64,000 nucleotides of DNA from an uncultured bacterium (lineage in GTDB: Bacteria; UBA8481), in NCBI GenBank assembly GCA_964499705.1, contig CAZCME010000006.1:62001-126000 (forward strand), given 5' to 3'. A model generated the notes under the pieces. That model saw only the letters and a program-made list of their open reading frames with translations, did not search any database and had not been told where the DNA came from. Every line of letters starts with the position of its first letter. Positions within the stretch are counted from its first letter, which is position 1. The translations under genes and the position numbers were made by a program. Below, piece by piece: positions 12,613 through 46,400 of the stretch.

Positions 12613-12629
12613 GGCGCAGCCCCGATCCT

Positions 12630-13884: not shown

Positions 13885-13898
13885 GGATCAATAAGCGG

Positions 13899-22243: not shown

Positions 22244-22729
22244 CTAGAATCCATCGTCATCATCGTCGTCGTCATCGTCATCGCTGTCATCATCGTCCTG
22301 ATAATCATCNNNNNNNNNNTCTTCAGCTTCATCTTGTTCTGCTTCTTCTTCATCTTCTGATTCTTCGACCGCATCTTCTTCTTCTTCTTCTTCATCATCA
22401 TCATCATCATCATTGTCATCATCGTCATCATCATCGTCGTCGTCATCGGAACCGCCCAGGTCGACTCCCAGCATGGCGGCCAGGGTAGCGCGCCCTTCAC
22501 CCGCCGACTTGTCCATGTTGATATTCGCGAAGAGTCCAGGCACGAACGGGAAAACCCAAAAAGCGGTCGCGGTAACCATGACAACAACCAGTACGTATTC
22601 CGTCAGTGAGACGCCGAGTTCCTTCAGGCGGCGAATCCACCTCAAATTCCCGCTCACCGGTTCCGCGGCGGATTCCTCCACAGTCGTCGCCGCCTTCGCG
22701 GCGATCGAATTCCTCAAGAATAGCAACAT
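22244..22729 (-). CDS. Flp/type IVb prepilin-like protein with Asp/Glu-rich tail (spans an assembly gap)
   Basis: G|VSLTEY followed by a hydrophobic helix, SAGEGRATLA, then a poly-D/E tract; GGAAGGA RBS upstream. Confidence 0.65.
   Translation of the reverse strand: MLLFLRNSIAAKAATTVEESAAEPVSGNLRWIRRLKELGVSLTEYVLVVVMVTATAFWVFPFVPGLFANINMDKSAGEGRATLAAMLGVDLGGSDDDDDDDDDDDNDDDDDDEEEEEEDAVEESEDEEEAEQDEAEXXXXDDYQDDDDSDDDDDDDDDDGF
22250..22446 (-). repeat. GAT/GAC/GAA trinucleotide low-complexity tract (poly-Asp/Glu), interrupted by N gap 22310-22319
   Basis: catcatcat/cttcttctt runs seen directly. Confidence 0.9.
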
Positions 22730-22750
22730 GATTACTTTCCTCCTTCCGGA

Positions 22751-23332
22751 CTAAAAATAAAGATTGTCTTCACGAACTTTCTTCTGCAATTTCGCGGATC
22801 GTTTCGCCGCGAGCTTTCCCAGGGCGTAATCGCCGTAGGTTCTTTCTATCCAGGAATACCTCGTGATCGCCACGGCGTATCGTCCGTGATTTTCATCGGT
22901 CAGTGCCTGCCGGTATTCCCACATGATGTCGTTGTGAGCGGCGCCGTCGCCGGGCAGATCATGCCGGGTCCTCAGGATGTCCAGCGCGTCCTGCGCGCGT
23001 TCCTTCTTGCTGTCCGGAGTCCGATCGTCGTTCACGCTGCGTGTCAGCAGATCCTCGGCTTCATCGAACAAGCCCAGTCTCCGCCACGCCGTCCACCCGG
23101 CCTCGAATGTCGCTTCGGCTGCCAGAACTGACGTTGGGCAGCTGTCGGCGATCATCCGGAAAAGCATGTACGCCTTCCCTGAATCCCCGCGTCGATAAGC
23201 TCGATCCGCGGATTGAAAGTAGCGATCGACGCCCATCTCAAACGAGGCTTCCGGACGCATCTCCGCCCACATGCCCATGCAGGTGAGATTCAGGATGACG
23301 AGCACGGCGGCGGCGATCGTGAATTTATTCAT
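22751..23332 (-). CDS. Exported TPR protein, type B (BamD/CpoB-like helical repeats)
   Basis: N-terminal signal or TM; A..Y..G.....A...F...P....A.EA.F..GW helical repeats; paralogous to 37197-37877; GGAGG RBS. Confidence 0.75.
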   Translation of the reverse strand: MNKFTIAAAVLVILNLTCMGMWAEMRPEASFEMGVDRYFQSADRAYRRGDSGKAYMLFRMIADSCPTSVLAAEATFEAGWTAWRRLGLFDEAEDLLTRSVNDDRTPDSKKERAQDALDILRTRHDLPGDGAAHNDIMWEYRQALTDENHGRYAVAITRYSWIERTYGDYALGKLAAKRSAKLQKKVREDNLYF

Positions 23333-23394
23333 CGCGTCACCGCCTCCGTCTCTGAATTGGTCATCCGGTCTGATCGGAACATGCCAACATCAAG

Positions 23395-23410
23395 AGCACT
23401 TTCCGTGCCA
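23395..23410 (-). promoter_or_regulatory. Sigma-54 (-24/-12) promoter upstream of TPR-B and the acidic pilin-like gene
   Basis: TGGCACGGAAAGTGCT, GG-N10-GC spacing. Confidence 0.65.
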
Positions 23411-23516
23411 CACGTCATGGACTTCAACGTCTGCATGTTCGCCCGTTTTTCGATATCTCGCAGATCCTGACAACATAGGAGATACGGTCGCATCGCCCCA
23501 TCATCCGCTTCTTCCA

Positions 23517-23548
23517 TATTCCCAGGGAATAACCTCTCACCTGTGAGA
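23517..23548. promoter_or_regulatory. Two adjacent palindromes, candidate enhancer sites
   Basis: TATTCCC-A-GGGAATA (23517-23531) and TCTCAC-CT-GTGAGA (23535-23548), about 110-140 bp upstream of the sigma-54 site. Confidence 0.45.
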
Positions 23549-23566
23549 TGTGGCGCAGGCGCCCCA

Positions 23567-24271
23567 TCATCGTGGCGCCTGTGTCCCGGTGTCGAGCGTC
23601 ACGCCCGTCAACGCCGTGAATCTCTTGCGCGCGTTGTTCGCGACCGAATGCGAGGGAAACTTCATCGCCACCGATCTGTACAAGTCGATGGCCCTGCTGT
23701 TATAACCGCTCTTCTCCGCCGCGCTCCCCTGGCGAAACATGGCATGTGGCACAAGAGTGGACTGGGGATACCGGCTCTCGATTTCGCTCAGAAGATTGAT
23801 CGCCTCCGCATAACGTTCCGCGCGATATTGCTCGCTCGCCTGGAACCATCTCTTCAACGCCTCTCCCTTGTCGTCTCCCCAATGCGCTTCGATGAACGCG
23901 AGATCCGACTGAGCCTTGTCGCCGATCTCGCTCTCCTCGAAGTCCGCGACCTGCCGGAGGACGGTGCGCGCCTTCTCCATGTCGAAATTATGCCGCTTAT
24001 GGATTTCCGCGAGAGCATATCCGGCCTTCGGAGCCATCACCGACCATGACATCTCCGTCATGATCTGGGTGTAAAGCGCCTCCGCCTTTCCGTAATCGCC
24101 CGCCTTTTCGATCTCCTCGGCGAGGGCGAAAATCTTCTCAGCGTCCTCGCGGCGCGACAGGTCGGGCCGGCCGAGCAGGAGATAAGAGGCGAGGACGACG
24201 TTCAGGAAGGAGAAGATCAGGATCCAGCGCACCCAGGCGTTGGTGGGCATCAGCCAATCGGTCGCTTTCAC
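23567..24271 (-). CDS. Membrane-anchored TPR protein, type A
   Basis: N-terminal TM, TPR repeats ending YP.S...P.A.F..G; paralogous to 37874-38509. Confidence 0.8.
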   Translation of the reverse strand: MKATDWLMPTNAWVRWILIFSFLNVVLASYLLLGRPDLSRREDAEKIFALAEEIEKAGDYGKAEALYTQIMTEMSWSVMAPKAGYALAEIHKRHNFDMEKARTVLRQVADFEESEIGDKAQSDLAFIEAHWGDDKGEALKRWFQASEQYRAERYAEAINLLSEIESRYPQSTLVPHAMFRQGSAAEKSGYNSRAIDLYRSVAMKFPSHSVANNARKRFTALTGVTLDTGTQAPR

Positions 24272-25659
24272 GCGGCGTCGCCCTTCCTCCTCAATTTTTC
24301 CGCCAGTCGCTTCCTATCGAGCCCGACGCGTCGGGCGGCTTCGGAAAGATTCCCTTGAGTTTTTCCCACGGCGCGCGAAAGGAATGCCGTCTCGAAGGCT
24401 CGCACCAGTTTCCGCCGCGCTTCACGGAACGTGCAGTCTTCATGCTCGCCTGCGAATCGCTCCATCACGGCCTCCAGCGAATCCTCATCCTCGCCCTGGA
24501 TCGTCAGCCCGTGAAAATGATCGGCGCGCAGCGCGGCTTCCGTCTGGCCCGTGGAGGACGCCAGCAGGATGGCGCGCTCGATGGCGGCGGAAAATTCGCG
24601 GATGTTGCCGGGCCAGTCCGCCCTGGCGAGAAATTCCTGCGCTTCCTCGGTCAGCCCCATGAAAGTTCGTCCCAGCCGCCGGCCGTGCAGAAATCCGAAG
24701 TGAGCGGCCAGCGCGGGTATATCCATGCGGCGTTCACGGAGCGGCGGAATCTCCACTGTGAATCCGGACAGTCGATAATAGAGATCCTCTCGAAATCTCT
24801 TCTGCCGGACCTCCTCGCGGAGATCCCGGTTGGAGGCGGCCACGAAACGCACATCGACCTTCATCTCGACCGTTCCGCCCAGCCTCCGCACCGCGCCCGT
24901 GTCCAGGAGCCGCAGGAGGCGCGCCTGGAGCCCGGGCGAAAGCTCCCCGATCTCGTCCAGAAAAAGCGTTCCGCCATTGGCCGCTTCGACAAGGCCGATC
25001 TTGCGGCCCACCGCTCCCGTGAAAGCGCCCTTTTCATATCCGAACAGCTCCGCTTCCAGGAGTGTCTCCGACAAGGTCGCCGTATTCACCGGAACAAACC
25101 GTCCTCTCCGCCCGCTGCGCGCGTGAACCATCCTGGCGAGAAGATCCTTGCCCGTGCCGGTCTCTCCAAGAAGAAGAACTGTCGTGGGCGACGTCGCGAC
25201 AAAATTGATGAGGTCGAGGACCTTTCTCGCGGGCGTCGATTCCCCGATGAAATGCGTCGAGTCCTCGTCGACCTCCACAAGGCGTTCCTTCCTGCGCGCG
25301 GTGAGCGCCTTCTCGATCCAGGCTGCGGCTTCTCTCCGGCGAACCGGCTTCGTCAGGTACGTGAACGCGCCTTTTTCCATCGCGTCCACCGCCTGCTGCA
25401 CGTTGGCGTGGCCGGTCATGAAGAGATAGTGCGCCGCGGAACTGCGGGACCGCGCATCGTCGAGAAGCTCGAGGCCGCTGCCGTCGGAGAGCCGGATATC
25501 GGAAAGCACGACCTCGGGATCCGAGGATGCGATGCAGCTCCGCGCGTCGGAGAGTGTCGCCGCCTGCAGCACGAAATGACCTTCCGCCTTGAGGGAGGCG
25601 GCGAGTGATTCGCGGAGCAATGGCTCGTCTTCCACGAGGAGCAGCGTCGCGGGAATCAC
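24268..25659 (-). CDS. Sigma-54-dependent response regulator (NtrC/PilR family: REC-AAA+-Fis HTH)
   Basis: VEDE/SD receiver, GETGTGKD, ELFGYEKGAFTGA, LFLDEIGE, FREDLYYRL, WPGNIRE, GNLSEAARRVG. Confidence 0.97.
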   Translation of the reverse strand: MIPATLLLVEDEPLLRESLAASLKAEGHFVLQAATLSDARSCIASSDPEVVLSDIRLSDGSGLELLDDARSRSSAAHYLFMTGHANVQQAVDAMEKGAFTYLTKPVRRREAAAWIEKALTARRKERLVEVDEDSTHFIGESTPARKVLDLINFVATSPTTVLLLGETGTGKDLLARMVHARSGRRGRFVPVNTATLSETLLEAELFGYEKGAFTGAVGRKIGLVEAANGGTLFLDEIGELSPGLQARLLRLLDTGAVRRLGGTVEMKVDVRFVAASNRDLREEVRQKRFREDLYYRLSGFTVEIPPLRERRMDIPALAAHFGFLHGRRLGRTFMGLTEEAQEFLARADWPGNIREFSAAIERAILLASSTGQTEAALRADHFHGLTIQGEDEDSLEAVMERFAGEHEDCTFREARRKLVRAFETAFLSRAVGKTQGNLSEAARRVGLDRKRLAEKLRRKGDAA

Positions 25660-26885
25660 GCGAGCTCCTTAGCATCGCGGACCGCATTCGCGCTCTTCGC
25701 CTGCCGAAGCTGGAGCGTGAATCGCGCGCCGCCCAGCGGCGAATCGGTGATCGAGAGCCGGCCGCCGTATTCGCCCGCCACGGTGCTGACGACAGCCAGG
25801 CCCATCCCCGTGCCCTTCGGTCGCGTCGTGAAGAGTGGGCGGCAGATGAGCGCGCGTTCCGCCTCGGGCACGCCGGGTCCCGAATCGTCCACGATGATTT
25901 CCGCCTTGTCATCGGCGCCCGTCCGCGTCGTGACGCGCACCACGCCGTCGCTGCCGGCAAATTCCATCGCGTTCAGCATGAGATTGAGGATCGCCTGCCT
26001 CAGGCGGCCCGCATCGGCCATCACGCACGCATTCTCCAGCGACTCCTCGATGACCGCCTCGCGCGCGCCGGGGGAAAAGCGACAGAGCCCGATCACCTCG
26101 GCGGCAAGCCCGGCGAGGTTCACGGAGTCCTCGCCGCGAACATCGTCCGATGAATCCGCGTCGACAACCGGCCGGGATGCGATCTCCATGATGCGCTCCA
26201 CTTCCCTCTCCACAACCGCGATCTTGTCCGCGGCATCGGCGCCGCCGGATGATTCCTTCCAGTTGTCCAGGAAGCTCAGAAGCCCGGCGGCCGGATTCCT
26301 GATCTCATGGGCCATCTCCGCGGCCACAAGCGACATCGCCGCCGCCTGGTTGGTTTTCCGGAGCTCCGCGACGCTCGCGAGATATCGCTCGTGCTGCCCG
26401 GCCTGATCCTCCACCATGGAGCCGAAGCTCGCGGATAAAAGGGTGAGCGCGAGGATCGATGTTCCGATGGCGAGCGAAAAGCCGGAGGAGAGCGCCCCGA
26501 GATACGCGGCGATCGCGCCGATGAAAAGAGTGGAAGCAAGCGCGCCGACGCGGCCGAAGATGTTCGCCGCGATGAAGACGAGGACCGTGAAGAGCCATGC
26601 GGCGGGCGAGATCACTTCGTCTCCCCAGGAGTTCAGCACCGTCGCGATCATGCAGAGTGACATCAGCAGAAACGCGGCGGACATCCCCGGGTGCCGCTCG
26701 TAGGCGATCAGGGCCATGACGTGAACGACGAGCACGATCGCGGCAACGGCGAGCACATGGTGGTAAGCCACTCCGTATCCGCGCGATGCCGCCAGGGATC
26801 CGAAGATGACCGACGAAAGCGCGAAGACGACGAATGTGCCCAGCATGAAGGAGCGATTCCGCTGGAAGATCGCGATGCGCATCAT
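25656..26885 (-). CDS. Polytopic membrane sensor histidine kinase (PilS-like architecture)
   Basis: About 6 N-terminal TMs, AHEIRNP, NLMLNA, DSGPG, KGTGMGL. Confidence 0.9.
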   Translation of the reverse strand: MMRIAIFQRNRSFMLGTFVVFALSSVIFGSLAASRGYGVAYHHVLAVAAIVLVVHVMALIAYERHPGMSAAFLLMSLCMIATVLNSWGDEVISPAAWLFTVLVFIAANIFGRVGALASTLFIGAIAAYLGALSSGFSLAIGTSILALTLLSASFGSMVEDQAGQHERYLASVAELRKTNQAAAMSLVAAEMAHEIRNPAAGLLSFLDNWKESSGGADAADKIAVVEREVERIMEIASRPVVDADSSDDVRGEDSVNLAGLAAEVIGLCRFSPGAREAVIEESLENACVMADAGRLRQAILNLMLNAMEFAGSDGVVRVTTRTGADDKAEIIVDDSGPGVPEAERALICRPLFTTRPKGTGMGLAVVSTVAGEYGGRLSITDSPLGGARFTLQLRQAKSANAVRDAKELA

Positions 26886-27760
26886 TCCGTCACCACCTCG
26901 CGCGTCGCTCCGGAAATATCAAAGCCCGGCATCGACGCATCCGTTCCGGAAAATCGCCCGGTGCCACGGTCGAACCGGGAGGAGCGCTCCGCTCTTGAAG
27001 ACCACGCTCCCGGACTCTCCAGGGTTTCCCTCTCCACGCCGGTCAAGACATCTTTCTCGGCCCCGGACTTCGTCATGTCGTAACCCGGCATCGATTCGTT
27101 GGAGCCGACGAACCGGCCGTCCCTCCTGCCTGCATTCGCGGAACCGGATGCGCGCTTCGCATCCGCGAGCATTCTCGCTTCATTTTCCCGCTCCGCCGCG
27201 GACACCACGACCGTCCGCTTCGCTCCCGCGATGTCGTAGCCCGGCATCGAGGAACTCGTGCCGGCAAACCGGCCGGTGCTTCCCACACCCTCGTTCCAGA
27301 GCGACGCACGCAGATTTCCGGAATAGGGAAGCTGAAGTTCCGACCTGGGCCGCGTGAAATCATGAACGACGACCTGCCGCTTATCCAGCCGCCATCTCCC
27401 CTGGTCCAGAGTCGTCAGGAAAGTCCAATCTCGCGATACGCCATACGGGAATTTGCTGAAATCGATCACGTCCGGCACGCGACCGGGATCGTTCAGGATT
27501 CTTTCCGCGACAGTCGCCAGCAGTTCCCACGAGCGCGACGTTCTCGTAAGGCCCAGCCCAGTCGTCAGATCCTCCACGCTCAATCGCGGAGCTGTATTCT
27601 CCCGTTCCGCCAGGGTCACATCAGTATCCCACTCGGGCGGATCGGGAACCGCCCAGTAAACGGCCAGCGAATAGACCACGGAAACAGCGCCAATCAGGAG
27701 CGCAATGTTGGGTGGAACGAGGGGTGGCATCTCCCCTGCATCGATGGACAGCTCCGCCAT
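26882..27760 (-). CDS. Hypothetical single-TM protein with three GRFxGxxxSMPG[YF]D repeats
   Basis: TM ending YWAVPDP; repeats at 27233-27274, 27077-27118, 26918-26959; stop overlaps the kinase start; ATG 27760 chosen because it lies downstream of the sigma-54 site. Confidence 0.7.
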   Translation of the reverse strand: MAELSIDAGEMPPLVPPNIALLIGAVSVVYSLAVYWAVPDPPEWDTDVTLAERENTAPRLSVEDLTTGLGLTRTSRSWELLATVAERILNDPGRVPDVIDFSKFPYGVSRDWTFLTTLDQGRWRLDKRQVVVHDFTRPRSELQLPYSGNLRASLWNEGVGSTGRFAGTSSSMPGYDIAGAKRTVVVSAAERENEARMLADAKRASGSANAGRRDGRFVGSNESMPGYDMTKSGAEKDVLTGVERETLESPGAWSSRAERSSRFDRGTGRFSGTDASMPGFDISGATREVVTE

Positions 27761-27804
27761 TACAACTGTCCTGGACCATAATTCGTGCGCACTCGGCACT
27801 GGAG

Positions 27805-27821
27805 AGCAAATGACATGCCAA
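27805..27821 (-). promoter_or_regulatory. Sigma-54 (-24/-12) promoter of the repeat protein-kinase-regulator-TPR operon
   Basis: TTGGCATGTCATTTGCT. Confidence 0.8.
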
Positions 27822-27911
27822 TTGTGCTTGCCATCACTTCGGCTGAAATAATATGAGTTATATGCCTGAATAAATTGCTGTTTTCAGGTCACGGAGTTGG
27901 GATGAGTAATG

Positions 27912-27964
27912 CAATACCCACATGGGAAATACAATACCCACATGGGTCGTTAATGCCCCATGTG
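27912..27964. promoter_or_regulatory. Tandem 15-bp repeats with internal dyad, candidate upstream activator sequences
   Basis: CAATACCCACATGGG at 27912-27926 and 27932-27946 (20-bp period), degenerate third copy at 27951-27964; AT-rich spacer before the promoter. Confidence 0.65.
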
Positions 27965-27974
27965 CATTTTGGAT

Positions 27975-29213
27975 TCAGAACATCGTCATGGCGGCCTTGG
28001 CCAGCGCGCTGGATGCATGCTGAGTATTGTCGATCCGGATGTCCGCGTTCTTCGGAGAGGACATAAATCCGCCGGCACGCAAGTCGTCATCCTGTCCCGA
28101 CGAGTCGCCGCTCTTAAGTTGAAGAGTCGAGAGAAAACGAAACCCGGCGAAGATCGAATACCGGTATCTCTGATGCCGCACGTGATCATCCTCCGCCTTC
28201 GCGATCCGGCACGCGTCCACGAGTCCTTCCAGATACGTCGCTGTATTGATGGACGGCGACTCGTGAAATGCGCCGAACACGGGATCGTCGATCTCCAGGT
28301 GCTGCTCCTTCGCGATCAGGTCGTCGCTCAATCGATACGCGAAATCGCGGTATCGTTCGTCACGCGTCAGTACGAACGCCTCCGCCATCGCGGTGGTCGT
28401 CCACGGCATGAACTTGGCCGAGCCATGCCGGTCCGGCTTCGCGGAATAGTACCGGTACGCGCGATCAAACGATCGGAGATAAGCCGTGTCCCTTGTCACC
28501 GCATACATCCTGATGAGCGCCAGCATCGCCTCGCCAGGGTAGATGGCGGAATTCCACTTCGTGCGCTTGTGTTCGCGGCTGTTCTTGTACATGTCGACGC
28601 TGCGAAACTGCCCGTTCTCCTTCTGCATGAAGAAGAGGAATCGCCCCACCGGTCCGATATACTGCGGCAGCGATGAATCGGCCCCGCGCGCGACAAGATG
28701 CACGCACGAGAGCATCGGCAGCGCGGAACCTCCGAGCTTGACCTCGCCCTCGAACTCGAAATATCCGCGATCGCGGGCGCGATCGTCCACGCGATAGCGG
28801 CTGAGCAGATACTGCATGGCCCTTCGCGCGCCCTCCTGGAAAGTCGCGTCTCCCGTCGCCTCGTGAAGAACCAGCAACGCGTATGCCGTTCCGGCCTGCC
28901 GCAGGAAATTATCCTCGTCGAAAACGGCCGAGATCACCGTGTCCTCCGCATCCACCCGGTAGACAAAACGACCGGTATTTTCTCCCTCGCGCACCTGCAT
29001 CCGGAGAATCCACCGCCCCCCCGCTTCCGCCATCGCAAGAAGCCGTTCCCGCGTGAACTCGCCTTCCAATTCCGCAAGCGTCTCCCACTTCGCGAGCCGA
29101 TCCTGTTCCCGCGCCCGATCGGAAGGAAACAGCACGCCCGTGAAGATAAGGAGAAAGACGATCTGCAGCAGAGCGGCGCACGCGACGGCCGCCATGAAAT
29201 ATTTCCGGTTCAT
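27975..29213 (-). CDS. Membrane-anchored alpha/alpha-barrel-like protein of unknown function
   Basis: N-terminal TM; motifs RQAGT.Y.L, KLGGSAL, YPGEA.LAL, RIDNTQH. Confidence 0.65.
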   Translation of the reverse strand: MNRKYFMAAVACAALLQIVFLLIFTGVLFPSDRAREQDRLAKWETLAELEGEFTRERLLAMAEAGGRWILRMQVREGENTGRFVYRVDAEDTVISAVFDEDNFLRQAGTAYALLVLHEATGDATFQEGARRAMQYLLSRYRVDDRARDRGYFEFEGEVKLGGSALPMLSCVHLVARGADSSLPQYIGPVGRFLFFMQKENGQFRSVDMYKNSREHKRTKWNSAIYPGEAMLALIRMYAVTRDTAYLRSFDRAYRYYSAKPDRHGSAKFMPWTTTAMAEAFVLTRDERYRDFAYRLSDDLIAKEQHLEIDDPVFGAFHESPSINTATYLEGLVDACRIAKAEDDHVRHQRYRYSIFAGFRFLSTLQLKSGDSSGQDDDLRAGGFMSSPKNADIRIDNTQHASSALAKAAMTMF

Positions 29214-30127
29214 TCGGTCATCCCTTCCGATTCCATTTCCTTCTCGATCCTCTCCTGCATCGCGGGCAGTTTTTCACCGTCCGAACTCCTTGTTCGAGCC
29301 ACCAAGACCATGATGGTCGCGCCGACGGCCAGCGCCACGGCCAGGGCGCCCAGCCGTTTCAATACGACGGGAGAAAGAAACCTGACCCGGGTTCTCGATT
29401 CCTCCGCCAACCTGACCGCGTCTCCGCCGGAAACATCCGCGATATAGCGAAGCAGCGCGGCGCAGAGGAGGACCGCGCCCATCATCTCCGCCGTCTCCTC
29501 AACCGCAACGGATAAAAGATAGGCGAAGCGGCCGGACCCGAGAAACAGTTCGCGGATCCCCTCCACGAAGATCGATCCGCCCCAGAAGGATAATCCGCAA
29601 AAGGCGCGCACAGCCGCTCCGGGACTCAGCGGCAGCCTCATCGTGAAGAAGACGGTGAAGAACGCGAAGACCGAGATGATGGCCGGCGCGTAGAGAATCT
29701 GCCACTGCGTCATGTACACCCAGAATCCGCCCATCGCCCTCGTCGTGGTTCGCACTTCTCTCCACAACAGATTCTCATGAAGCACCGTGATCTCGTCGAG
29801 GCTCATCGCAAATCCAACAAGCGCCACCGCCAGCCACAGTTCCGGCATCGCAAAGCACGCCTTCGTGTCCGGCGTCTCCGAGGCGCGCGCGCGCCGGTTA
29901 ATTCCATCTTCGACGTGGAAAATGAGGAGCGCGAAGAAACCGAAGAGCGCGAAAAGGCCTCCTGAAAACCAGGTCGGAATGTTGCGCTCCTTGTCCAGGT
30001 TGAACCAGTACACTCCGCCGGCCTTCACGTCGGACGCCGCCAGATGAAGGATCCCGAACGCGATCGTCGCTAGGACAAGCCCGGTGATGAACCGTCGACC
30101 GTCCCCGCGCTCCACGATCGTCGTCAT
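29210..30127 (-). CDS. Conserved polytopic membrane protein
   Basis: About 7-8 TMs; E.NIPTWFS, SLDE...LHE, EETAEMMG motifs. Confidence 0.75.
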   Translation of the reverse strand: MTTIVERGDGRRFITGLVLATIAFGILHLAASDVKAGGVYWFNLDKERNIPTWFSGGLFALFGFFALLIFHVEDGINRRARASETPDTKACFAMPELWLAVALVGFAMSLDEITVLHENLLWREVRTTTRAMGGFWVYMTQWQILYAPAIISVFAFFTVFFTMRLPLSPGAAVRAFCGLSFWGGSIFVEGIRELFLGSGRFAYLLSVAVEETAEMMGAVLLCAALLRYIADVSGGDAVRLAEESRTRVRFLSPVVLKRLGALAVALAVGATIMVLVARTRSSDGEKLPAMQERIEKEMESEGMTE

Positions 30128-33960: not shown

Positions 33961-34124
33961 GAACGATTACCGGCGGAAGCCGTCGCGTCGACGTGCATGG
34001 CGCTCATTTTCATTGTTCGGAATTCAATTGTCATCATAATCCGTTCCATGCGAATGCAAAACGAACCGCGGCGCGGATACCGGGATCGCGGGATATCGCG
34101 TGCCAGACGGTTGGATTCCGTCTT

Positions 34125-35972
34125 GTGAAACGCAGATTCCGCATACTCCTTGTGGAGGAGAACAAGTTTCAACGGAGCCTCCTGAACCGCTTCCTTGACG
34201 CGCACGATTTCTTCCCGGGATCCCGTTCCAGGAATTACCGGGAACTGCTGGCCGCCTTCGGGCTCCCTCATGACGTCGTCGAAGCGCACGAACTCGCGTT
34301 CACGCTCGCGAAACGGAAAGACCTCATCCCCTGCAGCGCCGTGATCCTGGCCTGTCCTCCCGCGCTGATACCCGGCGATGCGATGACGGAGCTGCGGCGT
34401 CTCTCGATGGAAGAGGGCGTCTCGCTCATCGCCGATTCTTTCCTGCTGTCCCGGCGCGGCGCCGTGGATCTTTTCGGAAACGCGTCGGTCGGCGGTTGGA
34501 GATTCGCCGGCGGACGAATGAGGACTGACAATGGCGGAACGCTTTACGAAATCGAGCCGGGACCGTATTCCGCGCGCGGTCCGGATACCGGCCTGAAACC
34601 CTGCCTGCGCTTTCTTCTCCAGGGTTTCCATGCCCGCTCCCTGCGGCCCGGCGACGCCGTTCCGACCGCGCATCATGCCAACGGTCTCCCGGCGATCCTG
34701 GAACATCGATTTGGAAAAGCTCGCAACCTGCTTCTCAATTTTCATCCGGCTTTCGTCCTTCGCGAGCCGAATCCCTTTCATGTGTTCTTGAGAAATTTTC
34801 TGGAAGAGAAAGGCGCGTGCCCGGGCGTCGCGCTTCATCTGCTGGACGCCGCCTGTCTCCGCATCGACGATCCCGGCTCCTGCGAGCGCGCGCATCTCGA
34901 CGGATACAACGATCGCGTGCTGCCCAGGAGCGCATGGGAGTCCCTCCTCGCGATGCTGCGACGCGAGCACGCTCACCTGAATGTCGCCTACGTTCCCCAA
35001 TGGATCGATGACGGCGAAGAGGAGCGCGGGACGCTGGAAGTCGGCGGCAAAAGAATCGAACAGCGCATCCCGGGCGCGGCTTATGACTCGTGGAAGATCG
35101 CTTACAGGAAGAAAGGTTCGGCGGCTGTTCATGATTACGCGCAGGAATACGAAGCGATCGCGCGTGGGGCGAAGGGGAATGCCGTCACGATTCTTTCGCA
35201 CGGTCTGACGCACCTGGCGCCGGATGTGGGGGCGTGGCTGAGCGCGCCCGACAGGCACCGCAACGGGAAATGGTTCCGCGAATTCCGGACGATGGTCCGC
35301 GGCCGGAAGGCCACTCCCCGCGAACTGCTGGATAGAATCCGTCTCGGGATGGACAGGATCCAGGAGGCATTTGGAACGCGTCCGACCGTCATTGTTCCAT
35401 CCGCGCATGAACATGACGCGGATTTCGGCGTGCTCGCCCGGGAAGCGGGATGCCTCGGGGTGGCCAGCAGGGCCTTCTATCCGGTCGCCCGCGGAAGCGA
35501 CGCGTCTCTTCGGAAGATCGCCGCTTTCTATCCTCCCGATGCGCGCGCGGGACACGCCTTCCTGGAAGCCGGATACTGTCCGACACTCGTCTTTCACGAC
35601 TATGACATTCGTGACGACGATCATGCCTGGCTCGTGACGATGATCGGCGAAATGCGCCGTCGGGGCGCACGCCGCTTCATATCCATCGAGGAGCTCGCCG
35701 GCCTCCTCGCGTGCGAACTCGACGTGTATGCGGAGAACGATACGATCGAGCTGTCGATAACGCTTCCGAAGTCCCATCCTTCCCTGCCGCCGGGACTCCC
35801 GTTCATTTCTCTCAGGTGCGGAGGCGCAATCGAAACCTGTTCGATCCAAGGAAGCATTGAGTCGTGCTCCATCGAGAGCGCGACGGATCTGACCGTCCTG
35901 CGGGTTCCGGCGAAAGCGTTTCGCGACGGCGCGGTACGACTTCGCGCCCTACGTGGAGGAGTCCATGGATGA
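34125..35972 (+). CDS. Polysaccharide-deacetylase-like (NodB/GH57-type barrel) hypothetical protein
   Basis: LRIDDP, SHGLTH, IVPSAH, LVFH pattern; start uncertain. Confidence 0.55.
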   Translation: MKRRFRILLVEENKFQRSLLNRFLDAHDFFPGSRSRNYRELLAAFGLPHDVVEAHELAFTLAKRKDLIPCSAVILACPPALIPGDAMTELRRLSMEEGVSLIADSFLLSRRGAVDLFGNASVGGWRFAGGRMRTDNGGTLYEIEPGPYSARGPDTGLKPCLRFLLQGFHARSLRPGDAVPTAHHANGLPAILEHRFGKARNLLLNFHPAFVLREPNPFHVFLRNFLEEKGACPGVALHLLDAACLRIDDPGSCERAHLDGYNDRVLPRSAWESLLAMLRREHAHLNVAYVPQWIDDGEEERGTLEVGGKRIEQRIPGAAYDSWKIAYRKKGSAAVHDYAQEYEAIARGAKGNAVTILSHGLTHLAPDVGAWLSAPDRHRNGKWFREFRTMVRGRKATPRELLDRIRLGMDRIQEAFGTRPTVIVPSAHEHDADFGVLAREAGCLGVASRAFYPVARGSDASLRKIAAFYPPDARAGHAFLEAGYCPTLVFHDYDIRDDDHAWLVTMIGEMRRRGARRFISIEELAGLLACELDVYAENDTIELSITLPKSHPSLPPGLPFISLRCGGAIETCSIQGSIESCSIESATDLTVLRVPAKAFRDGAVRLRALRGGVHG

Positions 35973-35979
35973 TCCTGGT

Positions 35980-36987
35980 TCAAGTTTTCCCCTCACCAGC
36001 GGGAGGATCCGCCGGCATGATGCGGGAGGCGGAGAAGTTGGCGCCTTCAGCCAGACCGATCATCCAGGCCAACTGGCCGGCGGCGATCAGCGGGAGCACT
36101 TGAGGCTTCAGGAGGATATCCGCGGGCTTGCGTCGTACAGTGCGAAGGATGCTCTTCACGAGCTTGACGAGAGGAAATATCGGCAGCAATAGATTGAAGA
36201 AGAAGGGGCGGCGGACGAGCCGGGATCCCCGGACGTCAGTACGCAGCAGAAACTCCGCGCCTGCTTTTCCGATCCTGCGCTGATGTCGAAGAAATCCGAG
36301 GAACGTCGAACGGTGATAATGCAGGACGCGGATCTTCTCGTGAAAGATAAGGCTCCGGTCGTGACGATCCCGCAGAAACTTCCAACTGAAGTAGCGGTCC
36401 TCCTGCGGAAACATCTCCGTTGGATACCCGCCCAGACGCAGGAAGTCCGCCTTCCGGATCATGATATTCCCCGACGGCAGATGCTCGACCGGAAATCTCC
36501 CGCGCCGCGTGTAGAACTGGCTGAATTCGAGAATGTGCCCGGCGCAACTCACGATCGACTCCGGGTTCGCGTTCTCGATAGGTCCTCCCACCGCGGCGGC
36601 ATCCTCCTTCAGATTCTGCATCATGAGCTTTAACCAGTCGGCGCCTGCGACACAATCGGAATCGATGAAGGCCAGGAGCTCCGCGTGCGCGGATTTCGCT
36701 CCGATGTTCCGCCCTTCTCCGGCGGACGTCTGTTTCTCCAGGCGAATGAGCCGCACTCGCGGACCGAATTCGCGGATGATGGAATCTGATCCGTCATCGG
36801 AGCTGTCGACGACAATGACCTCATAGGGCTGGCCGATCTCCTGCGCCACCACGCTCTCCAGGACGCGCCGGATGGTGGCACCGGATCGGAACGAAGGGAT
36901 GATGACGGAGGCGATCAGGGTATCAGGTGTTTTTTCCGGAGGCACGGGAGCGAAGGTAGCGAAACGGGCCGCCGCGGGCAAGGACAA
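35980..36987 (-). CDS. Glycosyltransferase family 2
   Basis: SVIIPSF, VIVVDSSDD, RNIGA, AFIDSDC, ED. Confidence 0.9.
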   Translation of the reverse strand: MSLPAAARFATFAPVPPEKTPDTLIASVIIPSFRSGATIRRVLESVVAQEIGQPYEVIVVDSSDDGSDSIIREFGPRVRLIRLEKQTSAGEGRNIGAKSAHAELLAFIDSDCVAGADWLKLMMQNLKEDAAAVGGPIENANPESIVSCAGHILEFSQFYTRRGRFPVEHLPSGNIMIRKADFLRLGGYPTEMFPQEDRYFSWKFLRDRHDRSLIFHEKIRVLHYHRSTFLGFLRHQRRIGKAGAEFLLRTDVRGSRLVRRPFFFNLLLPIFPLVKLVKSILRTVRRKPADILLKPQVLPLIAAGQLAWMIGLAEGANFSASRIMPADPPAGEGKT

Positions 36988-36993
36988 GCTCGA

Positions 36994-37200
36994 TCAAGGA
37001 TTCTTCGCCGGCGCTCCATACTGCTTCTCCAGCCTCGGCATCAGGAGCTCCGGCAGAGGAGAATATCTCATCCCCGTTTCGATCTCGGCGAGCGGAGGCG
37101 AATACGGCGCGGGGACGCAGAGATACCAGAGCCATGCGGAGAAGGAAACGACGATCAGGGTGTAGAAGATCGCCATGTGATTGCGAAGCGTCCACTTCAT
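36994..37200 (-). CDS. Small single-TM protein (68 aa), similar to the N-terminus of 26882-27760
   Basis: ATG overlaps the TPR stop (ATGA); TM ending WYLCVPAP...LAEIE versus YWAVPDP...LAERE. Confidence 0.6.
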   Translation of the reverse strand: MKWTLRNHMAIFYTLIVVSFSAWLWYLCVPAPYSPPLAEIETGMRYSPLPELLMPRLEKQYGAPAKNP

Positions 37201-37877
37201 CGCCGGTTCCTCAGAGGCGAATCGCTCGTCTTGAACTGAACATCTTCGATCTGATCGTCCTCCATTCCTTTCTTCAATGCGAGCAGATGCGGCTCGAGGT
37301 CCGTGCCGCGCGTCGTCAGGATCAGCCGGTCCGTCAAGGCGATCGCTTCCGCGAACTGTCCACGATCGCGCAATATCTTCGCGGCGACAATGAGCCGCGC
37401 AAGTTCTTCTCCGCCCGGCTTGATCATCGAGAGAAAGTCCAGGTTCTCGCGGACCTGGTCGGCATATTTTCCGTCCGGATGCCGCGCGATGTACTGCGCG
37501 AACAGGGCGCGGGCGCCTTCCACATCTCCGATCCGGTTCAGCGCGATCCATCCGGCGGTATACGTCGCTTCCTCCGCATGATAATCCTCCGGCAACTGCG
37601 TCCCGATGTAGCGATAATAATGGCGCGCTGTGACGTAATCATGGTCCCGGAGCGCCCGAACGGCGATCTCGTACGCCGTCCGGGCGTGTTGCATCCGGAG
37701 CTCGGCGGGGGGCGCGTAAACCCAGATCATGATTCCCGCCACGTTGAGGACGAGCGCCACAAGCTCCCAGATCATCGGCATCGTCCAGTGCCGGTTCACT
37801 TCCTCGATCCTCTTCCGCTCCTCCACGCCGTGTGAGCGGAGATCCTCCAGCGTCGCCGACAGGCTGGCGGTGGTCAT
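37197..37877 (-). CDS. Membrane-anchored TPR protein, type B
   Basis: TM, then AEEATYTAGWIALNRIGD, matching AAEATFEAGWTAWRRLGL of 22751-23332. Confidence 0.8.
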   Translation of the reverse strand: MTTASLSATLEDLRSHGVEERKRIEEVNRHWTMPMIWELVALVLNVAGIMIWVYAPPAELRMQHARTAYEIAVRALRDHDYVTARHYYRYIGTQLPEDYHAEEATYTAGWIALNRIGDVEGARALFAQYIARHPDGKYADQVRENLDFLSMIKPGGEELARLIVAAKILRDRGQFAEAIALTDRLILTTRGTDLEPHLLALKKGMEDDQIEDVQFKTSDSPLRNRR

Positions 37878-38509
37878 TGGAGGCTCGACAGCGCGCGCCA
37901 GTTGGCGCCGGGATAGGCCGACTGGAGCCGGCTTAGATACTTATTCGCGAGCTGTGGTTCATGGAGCCGCGATGCCGAGATCGTGTATCCCTGGTACAGG
38001 GCGAAGGGAATGATCGTGTCGGATGCGTGCTGCCAGAGGAGCTGATCGATCTTGGCAATGGCCTTCGAATGTTCTCCCCTGCGGCTAAGGCCCACCGCGG
38101 TGAAGTAGAGCGAAATCGCCGGGGAGCCGGGTCCTCCTTCCGCACGTATGAGGTCCGCGTAAGTTTTCGCCGTCAACGATTCAGGGTGGCCGGGAAATAC
38201 CGTCATCAGTTCGTCCAATCCCGCCAGCGCCTTCCCGATGTCGTTCCGATGCCGCAGGTCGAACCGGGCCATCTCCATCATCGCCTCGGGCGCCGTCGGC
38301 GACGATCTGTACGAGGGCTCGTTCAATGTGTCGAGAATTTTCGCCGCTTCGGAAATTCTGCCGCGCTCTTCGTATCGGCGCGCCAGGACCACGCCCTTCT
38401 CGGCATATTCCGCTCTCGCGACATGCGGCTGCATGACGGTGAAGGAGAGCACGACGAAGAAGTGGACTCCGGCGGCGAACGCCGCCCAGAGTCCGAGACG
38501 TTCCTTCAT
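37874..38509 (-). CDS. Exported or anchored TPR protein, type A
   Basis: TM, then APEAMMEMARFDLRHRNDIGKA, matching APKAGYALAEIHKRHNFDMEKA of 23567-24271. Confidence 0.8.
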   Translation of the reverse strand: MKERLGLWAAFAAGVHFFVVLSFTVMQPHVARAEYAEKGVVLARRYEERGRISEAAKILDTLNEPSYRSSPTAPEAMMEMARFDLRHRNDIGKALAGLDELMTVFPGHPESLTAKTYADLIRAEGGPGSPAISLYFTAVGLSRRGEHSKAIAKIDQLLWQHASDTIIPFALYQGYTISASRLHEPQLANKYLSRLQSAYPGANWRALSSLQ

Positions 38510-39387
38510 CAGAACGTCACCTTGAAGACGAGATCCTGGAAATCCGCCGCGGATGAAGAGGTGTTGTTCGTGCCCAGTTCCATCAGGTAGAGAACTTCAT
38601 TTTCTCCGATCGTGACCTGCTTCGTGACAGGATCGATCACGCTCTCCAGGAAAGCCTTGATCGCCGGTTGCTGCGAGAAAGGCGTCTTGTCCGGCACGTA
38701 ATCTCCGTTTTTCAAAGGAATGATCATGGGATTACTGGTCGTCGTAGTCTTCGTGTAAAGGGTGGCGCCCGACGTCGGGTTGTAGGACTTTCCGCGGAAA
38801 TCGATCTGTGTTCCCGCGGGCAGTGTCGTCAATTGCGATCCGGATGTCGGCGTGACTTCGGAACCCTTGCCGTAGAAGATCGTGGCCGGAACTCCGCCCA
38901 TGATCGTCTCGAGCCGCACCGGCACTTCCGGCCCGCCCGCGCCATACTGGATGGCGGATCCGAGGATGGAGATCTTGGGGGCGGCCGGAGCGTCAAACTG
39001 GAGCGCGCCGCTGGGGAGGATGGTGAAGGGAGGTACATAGGGTGCGGGATCCTCCGCGACAGGCTGATCCGCCGGAGCTCCGTCCTCATCGGCGGGGGCA
39101 TCGCCGGCAGGAGGCGCGGCCGCGTCAGCAGGCGCATCATCATCGTAAACGGCAAGATCACCGGCCAGGGTCGCCTGCCCCTGGCCGGCGGAACCCTCGA
39201 TTCCGAATTGCTCCGCCCAGAGTGGTTTCAACGCGGGGAAGACGACAAAGACGGTCGCCGATACAAGAGTGACTATGATGCCATATTCAACCGTGGTTGC
39301 GCCCCTTTGGTGGCAATGGTGCCGGGATAAAACGTCCTCCTTCGACTCGCTCAATTCGAACTTTCCGCTCATCCTCGTCATCGCCAT
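38509..39387 (-). CDS. Flp-prepilin-like protein with Asp/Ala/Pro linker and C-terminal beta-rich domain
   Basis: RG|ATTVEY plus hydrophobic helix, SAGQGQATLA, DAPAD linker, C-terminal DFQDLVFKVTF; start 39387 or 39429. Confidence 0.75.
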   Translation of the reverse strand: MAMTRMSGKFELSESKEDVLSRHHCHQRGATTVEYGIIVTLVSATVFVVFPALKPLWAEQFGIEGSAGQGQATLAGDLAVYDDDAPADAAAPPAGDAPADEDGAPADQPVAEDPAPYVPPFTILPSGALQFDAPAAPKISILGSAIQYGAGGPEVPVRLETIMGGVPATIFYGKGSEVTPTSGSQLTTLPAGTQIDFRGKSYNPTSGATLYTKTTTTSNPMIIPLKNGDYVPDKTPFSQQPAIKAFLESVIDPVTKQVTIGENEVLYLMELGTNNTSSSAADFQDLVFKVTF

Positions 39388-39452
39388 CGGAGCACGCTCC
39401 CTTTCATTTCCCCTTTGAAAACATGACATCGACTTTAGTCATTTCATGGAAG

Positions 39453-39469
39453 AGCAAGGGCGATGCCAA
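39453..39469 (-). promoter_or_regulatory. Sigma-54 (-24/-12) promoter of the pilin-like/TPR/TPR/small TM/GT2 operon
   Basis: TTGGCATCGCCCTTGCT. Confidence 0.8.
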
Positions 39470-46379: not shown

Positions 46380-46400
46380 CTGTCTTTTTCCGGCTCTCCG

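Follow-up and report, generated by a model that had tools for sequence, protein, structure and literature searches.

The locus analysed here, from a rare groundwater bacterial lineage (genome of 4.67 Mb, 96% complete), raises the question of whether its repeated genes for pilin-like and TPR proteins encode an export module of their own or belong with a known pilus system. The window, i.e. the whole stretch of 64,000 nucleotides that was analysed (contig C6:62001-126000), had initially been annotated with two copies of a permuted four-gene module embedded in a glycosylation locus. Every gene named there was present on the minus strand in the order given for both copies, and a large glycan-synthesis locus indeed surrounds the module. 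The features are:

39454..39468, minus strand: sigma-54 -24/-12 box TGGCATCGCCCTTGC before pilin 2, one of ten exact TGGCAY-N5-TTGCW sites in the 4.67-Mb genome
38509..39429, minus strand: pilin 2, copy 2 (Flp_Fap 23.2 bits, cut-off 32.2)
37874..38509, minus strand: TPR-A2, copy 2; N-terminal TM anchor, then TPR repeats
37197..37877, minus strand: TPR-B2, copy 2; TM anchor, then TPR repeats; 4-nt overlap with TPR-A2
36994..37200, minus strand: 68-aa single-TM protein, copy 2; TM, then VPAPYSPP
35980..36987, minus strand: GT2 glycosyltransferase, final gene of the copy-2 string
27975..29213, minus strand: TM-anchored protein, weakly matching the C-terminal C5-epimerase domain
27806..27820, minus strand: sigma-54 box TGGCATGTCATTTGC before the family-4/kinase/regulator/TPR-A1 operon
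26882..27799, minus strand: family-4 ("VPxP") protein, 305 aa, copy 1; probable start 27760
25656..26885, minus strand: histidine kinase, copy 1; six predicted TM helices, HisKA, HATPase_c
24268..25659, minus strand: NtrC-type response regulator, copy 1; REC, sigma-54 AAA+ domain, HTH_8
23567..24271, minus strand: TPR-A1, copy 1; TM anchor, then TPR repeats; 4-nt overlap with the regulator gene
23396..23410, minus strand: sigma-54-like box TGGCACGGAAAGTGC, one mismatch, 64 nt upstream of TPR-B1
22751..23332, minus strand: TPR-B1, copy 1; TM anchor, then TPR_6/BamD-like repeats
22244..22729, minus strand: pilin 1, copy 1; G|VSLTEY, TM helix, SAGEGRATLA, poly-Asp/Glu tail

Duplication and recurrence of the module

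Similarity between copies 1 and 2 exceeded chance for the pilins (BLASTP E 2e-10, 44% over 52 aa), TPR-A (E 1e-7) and TPR-B (E 6e-11), and the paralogues were among the top non-self matches (E 1e-6 to 5e-6) in phmmer searches of the genome's full six-frame ORF set (61,121 ORFs). The proposed four-gene duplication held for these families but failed for the "VPxP" pair: the 305-aa and 68-aa proteins had no detectable similarity (BLASTP E = 61) and when five clear relatives of the longer one were made into an HMM, it missed the 68-aa protein at E <= 10. Judged from these comparisons, the fourth family is without a duplicate inside the window. Genes from family 4 through TPR-A1 in copy 1 are joined by 4-nt stop/start overlaps, and the GT2 gene is context rather than a demonstrated part of the module.

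The suggestion that the module recurs was borne out by a check of co-occurrence and synteny across genomes, which yielded seven loci: three in this genome, three in related genomes (G002, G003, and G004), and one on a metagenome contig (L031). The third copy is on contig C13; roughly 10 kb separate it from the sole Tad locus of the genome, a spacing that may be due to chance. The order TPR-A, TPR-B, Flp was kept in three of the four other genomes of the order, including another family of that order, and on the one distant metagenome contig; the three genes adjoined each other in this order in 6/7 loci, copy 2 being permuted. Identities co-varied across pilin, TPR-A, and TPR-B (20-57% over the seven loci), reaching 47-57% in all three families for the C13/G002/G003 group, and in both TPR families copy 2 had diverged furthest. 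G004 kept the copy-1 order of family 4, kinase, regulator, and TPR-A, together with the protein at 27975..29213 upstream of the module (47% identity). G001, from the same family (86% complete), contained RcpC and the trio was not found in it. Full-length TPR-A occurred in 3/4 other genomes of the order and 0/36 outside it, the best 150 matches of a TPR-B profile to 1.84 billion representatives included only 13 near-full-length, single-stretch proteins, and a pilin profile gave 19 matches among 5.8 billion proteins.

Flp-type prepilins, payloads, and the Tad machinery

The pilin-like proteins are Flp-type prepilins. Their front end comprises a basic leader, G|xxxxEY, a TM helix, and an AGEGRATLA-like motif followed by a variable C-terminal payload, with G|xxxxEY plus the hydrophobic helix present in 3/3 copies. 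Pilin 2 (probable start 39387, preceded by an AAGGGAG ribosome-binding site) consists of G|ATTVEY, the TM helix, SAGQGQATLA, an acidic Pro/Ala linker, and a beta-sandwich of ~170 aa. Pilins 2 and 3 matched Flp_Fap, the Pfam cut-off being reached by 0/3 pilins, and pilin 1 had no Pfam or NCBIfam match; PF04964 was found in the database's own Pfam labels of 4/10 first family members (P0001-P0010). Contig C7 of this genome carries three short, canonical Flp genes that are related to the module pilins, and the module pilins share an xGEGxAxL motif both with them and with canonical 70-aa Flp pilins. The initial description as long pilin-like cargo proteins was apt for the variable C-terminal cargo, but the proteins are otherwise ordinary Flp-type prepilins akin to the C7 genes.

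The pilin 1 payload is a poly-Asp/Glu tail of ~70 aa ending in GF, its length being uncertain because a run of N (an assembly gap, about 22310-22319) lies inside it. The G004 orthologue has a ~60-residue poly-Asp tail ending in DF, and the pilins of copy 3, G002, and G003 have a short acidic tail, mostly with a terminal Phe. Mature Flp pilins are usually 40-60 aa, and a subunit of 260 aa may not fit as an ordinary Tad filament subunit, a minor or tip role excepted.

The copy-2 payload is a PA-IIL/C2-like beta-sandwich, probably with Ca2+-dependent sugar binding. Residues 111-294 of pilin 2 were modeled with pLDDT 70-87, and the top fold match was the PA-IIL lectin 1gzt (rmsd 3.2, 107/114 residues aligned) at Z 7.5, below 8 and so in the range where the tool warns of common arrangements; Foldseek gave LecB a probability of 0.98-1.0 with E 0.03. 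The domain had no sequence match to any solved lectin and no DUF4114 match of its own, and the family member P0013 matched DUF4114 at 28.1 bits (cut-off 27). In Myxococcus, DUF4114 has been reported from PilY1.1, a tip protein of the type IV pilus, as a Ca2+/sugar-binding domain of PA-IIL type, and was proposed to bind the cell's own exopolysaccharide with Ca2+ (PMC9109919).

As initially noted, the window itself lacked matches to T2SSE/TadA, secretin, and A24 peptidase profiles. Elsewhere in the genome, the C13 Tad locus encodes RcpC, secretin, TadZ with a REC domain, TadA, TadB, and TadC, pilin 3 being the only Flp-type gene on that contig, and the genome has one A24 peptidase, of PilD type with an A24_N_bact domain; no dedicated TadV-type peptidase was found in the 96% complete assembly. 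The Tad machine was also identified in all four relatives searched (RcpC in 4/4). A separate export route is unneeded because the full Tad machine and the PilD-type peptidase are encoded in the same genome.

Regulation, TPR proteins, and alternative explanations

The module's own sigma-54 two-component system, also recognized in the initial annotation, corresponds to the kinase and NtrC-type activator of copy 1, which by architecture have a PilS/PilR-like layout. The kinase has six predicted TM helices with no periplasmic domain and shares 34% identity with the G004 kinase, TM part included; the best NCBIfam matches were AtoS/ZraS and NtrC, all under cut-offs. The genome contains rpoN, and sigma-54 boxes precede three module operons (pilin-2, kinase, and TPR-B1/pilin-1), so that one regulator probably drives both copies. 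Five window sites lay within one mismatch of TGGCAC-N5-TTGC, the three with TGG all upstream of module operons on the correct strand, and two of the ten exact genomic sites are module boxes. Such a box also precedes one canonical Flp gene on C7. Neither copy 3 nor the module promoters of the relatives yielded a sigma-54 box, and matches within two mismatches were not enriched across the window (30 observed vs 44 expected).

It is possible, although unlikely, that the set is a signaling device with no filament, in which the Flp-like proteins never leave the inner membrane and act there as co-sensors for the kinase, the acidic tails or beta-sandwich read periplasmic Ca2+/Mg2+ or glycan, and TPR-A, TPR-B, and family 4 complete a sensory complex controlling the surrounding glycan genes. 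Consistent with this are a kinase with no periplasmic or own sensor domain, the translational coupling of family 4, kinase, regulator, and TPR-A1 in an order kept by G004, the glycan-synthesis setting, and the lack of an adjoining Tad gene in 6/7 loci, including G002, G003, G004, and L031. PilS, likewise with six TM helices and no periplasmic domain, senses pilin in the membrane (PMC6058289). However, neither kinase nor regulator lies beside the trio in 5/7 loci (copy 2, copy 3, G002, G003, and L031), the front end is that of a typical cleavable Flp prepilin close to canonical Flp genes, and a lectin-like head better suits an external adhesin.

TPR-A and TPR-B are two paralogous TPR proteins, each with one membrane helix bearing a conserved mid-helix Asn. 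Searches of Pfam and NCBIfam gave generic TPR, BamD, or YbgF matches alone, all under cut-offs, such that no curated Tad or T2SS accessory family fits, as the initial annotation had supposed. The pI of their soluble parts ranged from 5.0 to 9.8; they are not consistently basic, and therefore no simple charge match to the acidic pilin tails is apparent. Family 4 in copy 1 has a TM helix, Y..VPDPP..VTLAERENTAP, and three GRFxGTxxSMPGYD repeats; relatives precede TPR-A in C13, G002, and G003 and the kinase in G004, and a candidate in L031 was judged by eye alone. The TPR proteins may instead be general Tad envelope factors, equivalents of the secretin pilotin TadD/CpaO that are merely encoded beside pilins, which is improbable. 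TadD/CpaO is a TPR protein required for the Tad secretin (PMC10934763), and no TadD-like gene was seen among eight proteins scanned at the C13 Tad locus. Against this, neither family alignment contained a conserved lipobox Cys, CpoB/YbgF and BamD rather than pilotins are the closest relatives of solved structure, the TPR genes never adjoin the secretin, and the three diverged copies per genome are each tied to one pilin and diverge with it.

That the genes are unrelated neighbors ordered by recent local duplication, with no shared function, is already disfavored and very improbable given an order kept at 20-57% identity over seven loci that extend to another family and a distant contig, the divergence of the trio in step, and the sigma-54 boxes common to the operons. 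Least credible is exopolysaccharide-linked protein sorting of the PEP-CTERM/exosortase type (PrsK/PrsR/PrsT), in which VPxP would be a degenerate sorting motif. In its favor, the EPS-type locus combines TPR proteins with sigma-54 two-component genes, and the regulator and kinase match the PEP-CTERM-box regulator model (317 bits) and PrsK (58.5 bits). However, both scores are far under the cut-offs of 502.6 and 300, VPxP is N-terminal after the TM helix instead of C-terminal, and the 96% complete genome had no exosortase (PF09721) match.

Proposed function and comparison with known systems

The evidence leans towards payload-carrying Flp (type IVc/Tad) pilins with their own membrane-anchored TPR accessory proteins. 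By its Flp front end each pilin would enter the inner membrane, to be cut by the single PilD-type peptidase and polymerized by the single Tad machine on C13. The payload behind it, i.e. poly-Asp/Glu (copy 1, G004), beta-sandwich (copy 2), or short acidic tail (copy 3, G002, G003), would be exposed at the surface. The TPR proteins, joined in most loci by the bitopic family-4 protein, may contact the pilin as accessory partners, docking on prepilin still embedded in the membrane, or on the acidic C-terminus, to hold it or pass it on. Expression would proceed via sigma-54, with copy 1 supplying the PilS-like kinase, which perhaps senses the membrane pilin pool as PilS does, and the NtrC/PilR-like activator. 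The glycan-locus setting suggests a role for the pili in binding or organizing either the surface glycan of the cell itself or cations and minerals.

The use of an Flp front end as a handle for a C-terminal domain has a counterpart in Flp pilin modules that carry toxins or other cargo (PMC12605009). The module differs in its cargo, an acidic tail or lectin-like domain, and that description mentions neither dedicated TPR partners nor sigma-54 control. PilY1.1 of Myxococcus offers a parallel for pilin 2 in a PA-IIL-type beta-sandwich borne by a type IV pilus component (PMC9109919), suggested by the fold (Z 7.5) and the DUF4114 match of one family member; here the domain is joined straight to the Flp pilin helix rather than to PilY1. 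PilS-PilR of Pseudomonas, Myxococcus, and Geobacter shares the six-TM kinase without periplasmic domain, the NtrC-type activator, and sigma-54 boxes before pilin operons (PMC6058289). The two-component system of the module differs in sharing an operon with family 4 and TPR-A. PilS/PilR targets are type IVa pilins, whereas those of the module are Flp-type.

TadD/CpaO and the PilF/PilW pilotins are likewise small TPR proteins encoded with pilus genes, but the module TPR proteins have an uncleaved-looking TM anchor in place of a lipobox, are paired, and are tied to the pilin rather than the secretin. Also comparable in arrangement are TfpO, TfpW/X, TfpY, and TfpZ of Pseudomonas aeruginosa, small membrane-anchored, pilin-allele-specific accessories encoded beside pilA that diverge with their particular pilin variant, although the module differs in protein family (TPR) and pilin class (Flp). 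Flp/Tad (type IVc) pilins such as Flp1 of Aggregatibacter and PilA of Caulobacter share the basic leader, G|xxxxEY, and hydrophobic helix. The module pilins differ in lying away from the tad genes, in Pfam scores under the family cut-off, in the long payload of the mature protein (poly-Asp/Glu tail or ~170-aa beta-sandwich), and in the two TM-anchored TPR genes joined to each pilin gene. A Tad machine is likewise present in this genome and in the four relatives searched. The module is a variation on the known Tad/Flp pilus theme.

Gene content of the two copies and their Flp-type pilins

The locus at 22244-39469 was read, with a slightly better than even chance, as encoding payload-carrying Tad/Flp pilins with their own TM-anchored TPR pair under sigma-54 control. 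All genes named there by the initial annotation were present on the minus strand in the order it gave, and the two copies of the module comprised the following, each in the direction of transcription.

Genes of the two module copies
38509-39429 (-): copy 2, first gene; pilin 2, Flp-like, 306 aa
37874-38509 (-): copy 2; TPR-A2
37197-37877 (-): copy 2; TPR-B2
36994-37200 (-): copy 2; 68-aa single-TM protein
35980-36987 (-): copy 2, last gene; GT2 glycosyltransferase
26882-27799 (-): copy 1; family-4 protein, 305 aa, with TM helix, VPDPP and three GRFxGTxxSMPGYD repeats
25656-26885 (-): copy 1; histidine kinase
24268-25659 (-): copy 1; NtrC-type regulator
23567-24271 (-): copy 1; TPR-A1
22751-23332 (-): copy 1; TPR-B1
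22244-22729 (-): copy 1; pilin 1, Flp-like, 161 aa, with poly-Asp/Glu tail

The duplication had been proposed to span four families and held for three of the four pairs by BLASTP (pilins 2e-10, TPR-A 1e-7, and TPR-B 6e-11), these paralogues ranking among the top non-self matches when all 61,121 six-frame ORFs of the genome were searched with phmmer. The fourth, "VPxP" pair was not supported: the 305-aa and 68-aa proteins gave BLASTP E = 61, the 68-aa protein was undetected by a family-4 HMM built on five clear relatives of the longer one, and across the genome this HMM matched the 305-aa protein and one protein of contig C13 only.

The pilins had a common front end of basic leader, G|xxxxEY, and hydrophobic helix, and the pattern of a short basic leader, G|xxxxE[YF], and a hydrophobic stretch of approximately 20 residues was present in all three copies in the genome (copy 3 lies on C13) and in all relatives. 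A further motif, (A/S)G(E/Q)G(R/Q)A.LA..L.V, lay 10-15 residues past the helix and was also found in canonical Flp pilins of about 70 aa retrieved by the search (P0012, P0014, and P0015) and in three short Flp genes of contig C7. On these grounds, the module pilins are Flp-type prepilins to which C-terminal parts have been added. Flp_Fap (PF04964) scored below its gathering cut-off of 32.2 bits in pilin 2 (23.2-25.3) and pilin 3 (26.4) and gave no match in pilin 1, and the database's own labels assigned PF04964 to some members of the pilin family. The mature Flp/Fap subunit is small, about 40-60 aa, and without a globular domain; pilin 1 (about 120 aa mature) and pilin 2 (about 263 aa) both exceed this range, and pilin 3 (about 65 aa) alone of the three nears it. 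The three canonical Flp genes of C7 (G000:C7:197143-200029, stretch L010) flanked a 657-aa multi-TM protein without a family match, near a gene for a 1,064-aa BamA-like Omp85 protein with Big_1 domains, and no Tad gene was present in this 20-kb stretch.

Behind the front end, the payloads were acidic or predicted beta-sandwich parts that differed between family members, as listed here for the copies, other genomes of the order (G002-G004), a metagenome contig (L031), and database proteins (P numbers).

Payloads of the pilin family
Copy 1 and G004: poly-Asp/Glu tail
L031: Asn/Asp-rich tail
Copy 3, G002, G003, and P0004-P0010: 10-25 residues, mostly acidic
Copy 2, P0011, and P0018: domain of ~170 aa after an acidic Pro/Ala linker
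P0013: another C-terminal domain of ~170 aa

Among 17 family members tabulated, the last residue was hydrophobic in 16 (Phe in 11) and the terminus was DDF in eight. The tail length of pilin 1 as assembled is unreliable, as a run of N lies at about 22310-22319 inside its GAT/GAA-rich acidic repeat (22249-22455) and contigs from four public sequencing runs each break at this repeat. Public runs listed as containing the locus were nine DNA and no RNA.

The AlphaFold model of pilin 2 was confident for the C-terminal domain only (pLDDT mostly 70-87), and the best structural match of this domain was the Ca2+-dependent lectin PA-IIL (1gzt; rmsd 3.2, 107/114 residues aligned) at Z 7.5, a value under 8 that may reflect a mere common arrangement, followed by C2 domains at Z 6.5 or less. 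Foldseek returned LecB with a probability of 0.98-1.0 and E 0.03, and a pilin-2 profile found nothing meaningful among the sequences of solved structures. DUF4114 was detected in P0013 alone (28.1 bits, cut-off 27), with no match at E <= 10 in pilin 2, P0011, or P0018. In PilY1.1, a tip protein of type IV pili, DUF4114 is described as a domain of the PA-IIL type that binds Ca2+ and sugar and is proposed to bind exopolysaccharide (PMC9109919). On the predicted model, the C-terminal domain of pilin 2 is plausibly a lectin.

Probable sigma-54 control and the TPR pair

The module's own sigma-54 two-component system was borne out by a kinase and an NtrC-type regulator in copy 1 and by sigma-54 boxes before the module operons. 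In the kinase, six TM helices were predicted, joined by very short loops and without a periplasmic domain, ahead of HisKA and HATPase_c, and the regulator combined REC, sigma-54 AAA+, and HTH_8 domains; the NCBIfam matches shown for the two were to other kinases and activators, each below cut-off. The pairing of a six-TM, sensor-less kinase with an NtrC-type sigma-54 activator resembles PilS/PilR, for which such an architecture, sigma-54 control of pilA, and sensing of pilin in the membrane are described (PMC6058289). Stop/start overlaps of 4 nt ran from the family-4 gene through TPR-A1, so that TPR-A1 is translated together with the two-component system. The main rival, which we consider unlikely, is that the module forms a sensory complex in the membrane that serves the kinase, itself lacking a sensor.

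Five sites in the window lay within one mismatch of TGGCAC-N5-TTGC, and the three that kept TGG were all on the minus strand before module operons, each continuing as ...TGCTCT.

Sigma-54 boxes before module operons
39454-39468 (-): before pilin 2
27806-27820 (-): before the family-4/kinase operon
23396-23410 (-): one mismatch, 64 nt before TPR-B1/pilin 1

The exact pattern TGGCAY-N5-TTGCW occurred at 10 sites genome-wide, including the boxes before pilin 2 and the family-4/kinase operon; chance alone would give ~7 in 9.3 Mb, and the argument thus rests on placement and not on number. When two mismatches were allowed, the window showed no enrichment, with 30 sites against an expected 44. A box was also present at one canonical Flp gene of C7, and rpoN lay on the same contig as the module. 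No sigma-54 box was found at copy 3 or at the relatives' module promoters, and a relaxed pattern gave two matches near these loci, both in coding sequence (L025 10577 and L027 12584).

TPR-A and TPR-B were mutual paralogues (phmmer cross-matches 1e-4 to 1e-5), each with a single N-terminal hydrophobic helix followed by TPR_6-type repeats; one Asn in the helix was nearly invariant in TPR-B, and the corresponding position was Asn, His, or Asp in TPR-A. Scores were 24-33 bits for BamD (NCBIfam cut-off 81.4) and 18-55 bits for YbgF (cut-off 90.1). CpoB/YbgF and BamD were the nearest natural solved proteins, and TPR-B1 retrieved generic TPR_6/YfiO clusters only from the ESM Atlas; the likeness to BamD/YfiO and CpoB/YbgF is at the TPR level only. 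Improbable to a greater degree than the sensory complex is that the TPR proteins fill a TadD-like pilotin role. TadD/CpaO is an outer-membrane lipoprotein with a lipobox Cys (PMC10934763), whereas no conserved Cys followed the hydrophobic segment in the alignments of six TPR-A and 15 TPR-B sequences. TadD/CpaO is also encoded in the tad locus and needed for the secretin, whereas the TPR-A and TPR-B genes never adjoined a secretin in the loci read. An alignment-based complex prediction of TPR-A and TPR-B with pilin residues 30-100 gave scores of 0.01 and 0.02, the mark being 0.32, and these values are evidence neither for nor against a complex. A simple charge match between the TPR domains and the acidic tail was rejected, the soluble TPR domains being not uniformly basic (pI 5.0-9.8).

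In family 4, a TM helix was followed by Y.EPP and a V/I-x-L..R..TEP-like motif, which reads VTLAERENTAP in the window protein; behind these came a low-complexity linker and short repeats. Its relatives lay immediately upstream of TPR-A in the loci of copy 3, G002, and G003 and upstream of the kinase in copy 1 and G004, with an L031 candidate at the same place by eye; copy 2 had in its stead only the unrelated-looking 68-aa protein.

Recurrence, Tad machinery, and genomic setting

In line with the recurrence suggested by the initial annotation, the module was found at seven loci in all, across the genome, its relatives, and one metagenome contig. Copy 3, at the start of C13, consisted of a 167-aa TM protein, TPR-A3, TPR-B3, and then a 96-aa Flp-like protein (phmmer). 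Sampling of the lineage is sparse: the relatives were three other genomes in the family and one more in the order, the next ones sharing the domain only. Full-length TPR-A was present in three of these four (G002, G003, and G004; profile E 1e-52 to 1e-69), G001 (86% complete) gave no TPR-A match by profile, and 36 genomes outside the order gave partial TPR-repeat matches only (best E 4.8e-11, profile positions 119-213). TPR-A, TPR-B, and the Flp-like gene were adjacent in this order in G002, G003, and G004. The last, of a different family in the same order and with one protein labeled Candidatus Hydrogenedentota in one source, repeated copy 1 in full, with an epimerase-like protein (47% identical to its window counterpart), a relative of the 305-aa family-4 protein, a kinase (34% identical to that of copy 1, TM part included), an NtrC-type regulator, TPR-A, TPR-B, and a Flp-like protein that carries some 60 Asp residues and ends in DF. 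The AAA+ gene (462 aa) that lies downstream of the pilin in G004 was rejected as a module part, its orthologue in the source genome being unlinked, on C11. L031, reached through the distant TPR-B relative P0039, carried the candidate family-4 protein, TPR-A (E 5.5e-39), TPR-B, and a Flp-like protein with the terminus DDADDF.

Gene order was identical in six of the seven loci and permuted in copy 2. The C13, G002, and G003 loci formed a group with 47-57% identity in each of the three families, and copy 2 was the most distant for TPR-A and TPR-B alike (17-24%); the identities of the three families co-vary, from which it follows that duplication and divergence affect the set as a whole. That this is a mere neighborhood of genes is very improbable. 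Beyond these loci, a TPR-B profile gave 3,159 matches at E <= 0.001 against 1.84 billion representative proteins; among the best 150, 13 were single-stretch and near-full-length (133-225 aa) and the others were long multi-repeat TPR proteins, and each of 10 of the 13 that were looked up was a one-member cluster. The pilin profile gave 19 matches among 5.8 billion proteins, and the TPR-A profile matched 10 proteins, four full-length. The family members P0011, P0023, P0034, and P0038 have a longest contig of equal length (14,954 nt) and are thus probably encoded on a single contig. Searches for further loci with the TPR-A alignment and P0039 against genome contigs and with P0035 (another family member) against metagenome contigs gave nothing useful, and P0035 against genome contigs gave a partial TPR match only (L030).

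T2SSE ATPase, secretin, and A24 peptidase had no match within the window (C6:62001-126000), as previously noted, and a search of the rest of the genome for tad genes and prepilin peptidase located a Tad locus on C13 and a single PilD-type A24 peptidase, which carries an A24_N_bact domain. Paired single-domain T2SSF proteins (TadB/TadC type) occurred at one locus in the genome, on C13, which encoded RcpC, a 1,121-aa secretin, a TadZ-like ParA ATPase with REC, TadA, TadB, and TadC. The N-terminal response-regulator receiver domain of the TadZ/CpaE-like ATPase (L028 4460-5842 on G000:C13) scored 48.7 bits. The sole Flp-type gene on C13 was pilin 3, about 10 kb from TadC and separated from it by rho and unrelated genes. 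RcpC had one match in each of the four relatives, never on the contig of the trio. The 4.67 Mb genome held 21 T2SSE-type ATPase and six secretin matches, unusually many T2S/type IV pilus-like machines, one of the secretin matches lying inside a 3,392-aa open frame (C1:487832). The least probable of the alternatives, a PEP-CTERM-type system, had exosortase PF09721 without a match in the genome (96% complete), PrsK at 58.5 against a cut-off of 300, and PrsR at 317 against 502.6.

The module is embedded, as first described, in a large surface-glycan locus with flippase, GT4, GT2, and PMT_2-type transferases, a YdjC-like protein, PEP mutase, sugar-nucleotide enzymes, and several B12-radical-SAM enzymes. 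Within it, the PEP phosphomutase, aminotransferase, nucleotidyltransferase, and at least five radical-SAM/B12-radical-SAM genes at 9208-15479, 44247-48125, and 59002-62354 suggest a phosphonate-bearing or heavily methylated surface glycan. An antitoxin-like gene (82 aa) overlapping a PIN-domain gene (136 aa, PIN 38.7 bits) at 39606-40261 (+) resembles a VapBC-type pair; it is inserted immediately upstream of the promoter of pilin 2, on the opposite strand. Between the copies, 30124-33960 (-) encoded a 1,278-aa protein with many TM helices, a middle part without a family match, and, at its C-terminus, a domain like those of metallo-beta-lactamases and lactonases (77 bits for Lactamase_B; 82.6 bits, below cut-off, for AiiA-like), and long candidate ORFs overlapped on opposite strands at 33993-35972 (+; 659 aa, no Pfam/NCBIfam match) and 33957-35849 (-).

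Proposed function and comparison with known systems

For payload-carrying Tad/Flp pilins, the pilins would be cut and polymerized by the Tad machine and A24 peptidase of the genome, and the payloads would be displayed on the filament. C-terminal peptides are bound by TPR and BamD-type proteins, and the TPR pair may bind the pilin helix to helix (Asn to Glu+5) or via the acidic, Phe-ended C-terminus, with the kinase perhaps sensing the pilin pool. A more far-reaching and doubtful proposal is that Tad pili are a modular display scaffold, in which one Flp handle would carry interchangeable Ca2+-binding payloads (a poly-Asp tail of at least 60 residues or a PA-IIL-type lectin), a dedicated membrane-anchored TPR holdase pair would, ahead of assembly, recognize both the handle and the acidic C-terminus with its final Phe, the PilS-like kinase would tune the set via sigma-54, and the pili would be coupled to the cell's own surface glycan or to cations or mineral surfaces in groundwater.

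Every element has a known relative, namely Flp pilins, PilS/PilR, pilus TPR accessory proteins, and pilus-tip lectin domains, and the claim made for the module stays modest, with putative binding, processing, and assembly. Flp modules fused to cargo are already described (PMC12605009). The combination here comprises a Flp handle, long acidic or lectin-like payloads, always two TM-anchored TPR paralogues, multiplication in the genome, and a PilS-like sigma-54 tie; it was absent from the curated libraries searched (Pfam and NCBIfam), and no description of the module was found in the open-access literature searched. To our knowledge, no pilins are considered smaller than Flp pilins, which are held to lack room for extra domains; a Flp helix with long acidic tails or a lectin-like domain and its own TPR partners would widen the display by Tad pili, and the module would offer a handle on the poorly known pilin-specific accessory factors of type IVc systems. 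Whereas PilS/PilR is known for type IVa pilins, the pilins of the module are Flp-type, and PilS/PilR-style sigma-54 control would thereby extend to Flp-type pilins in an uncultured lineage.
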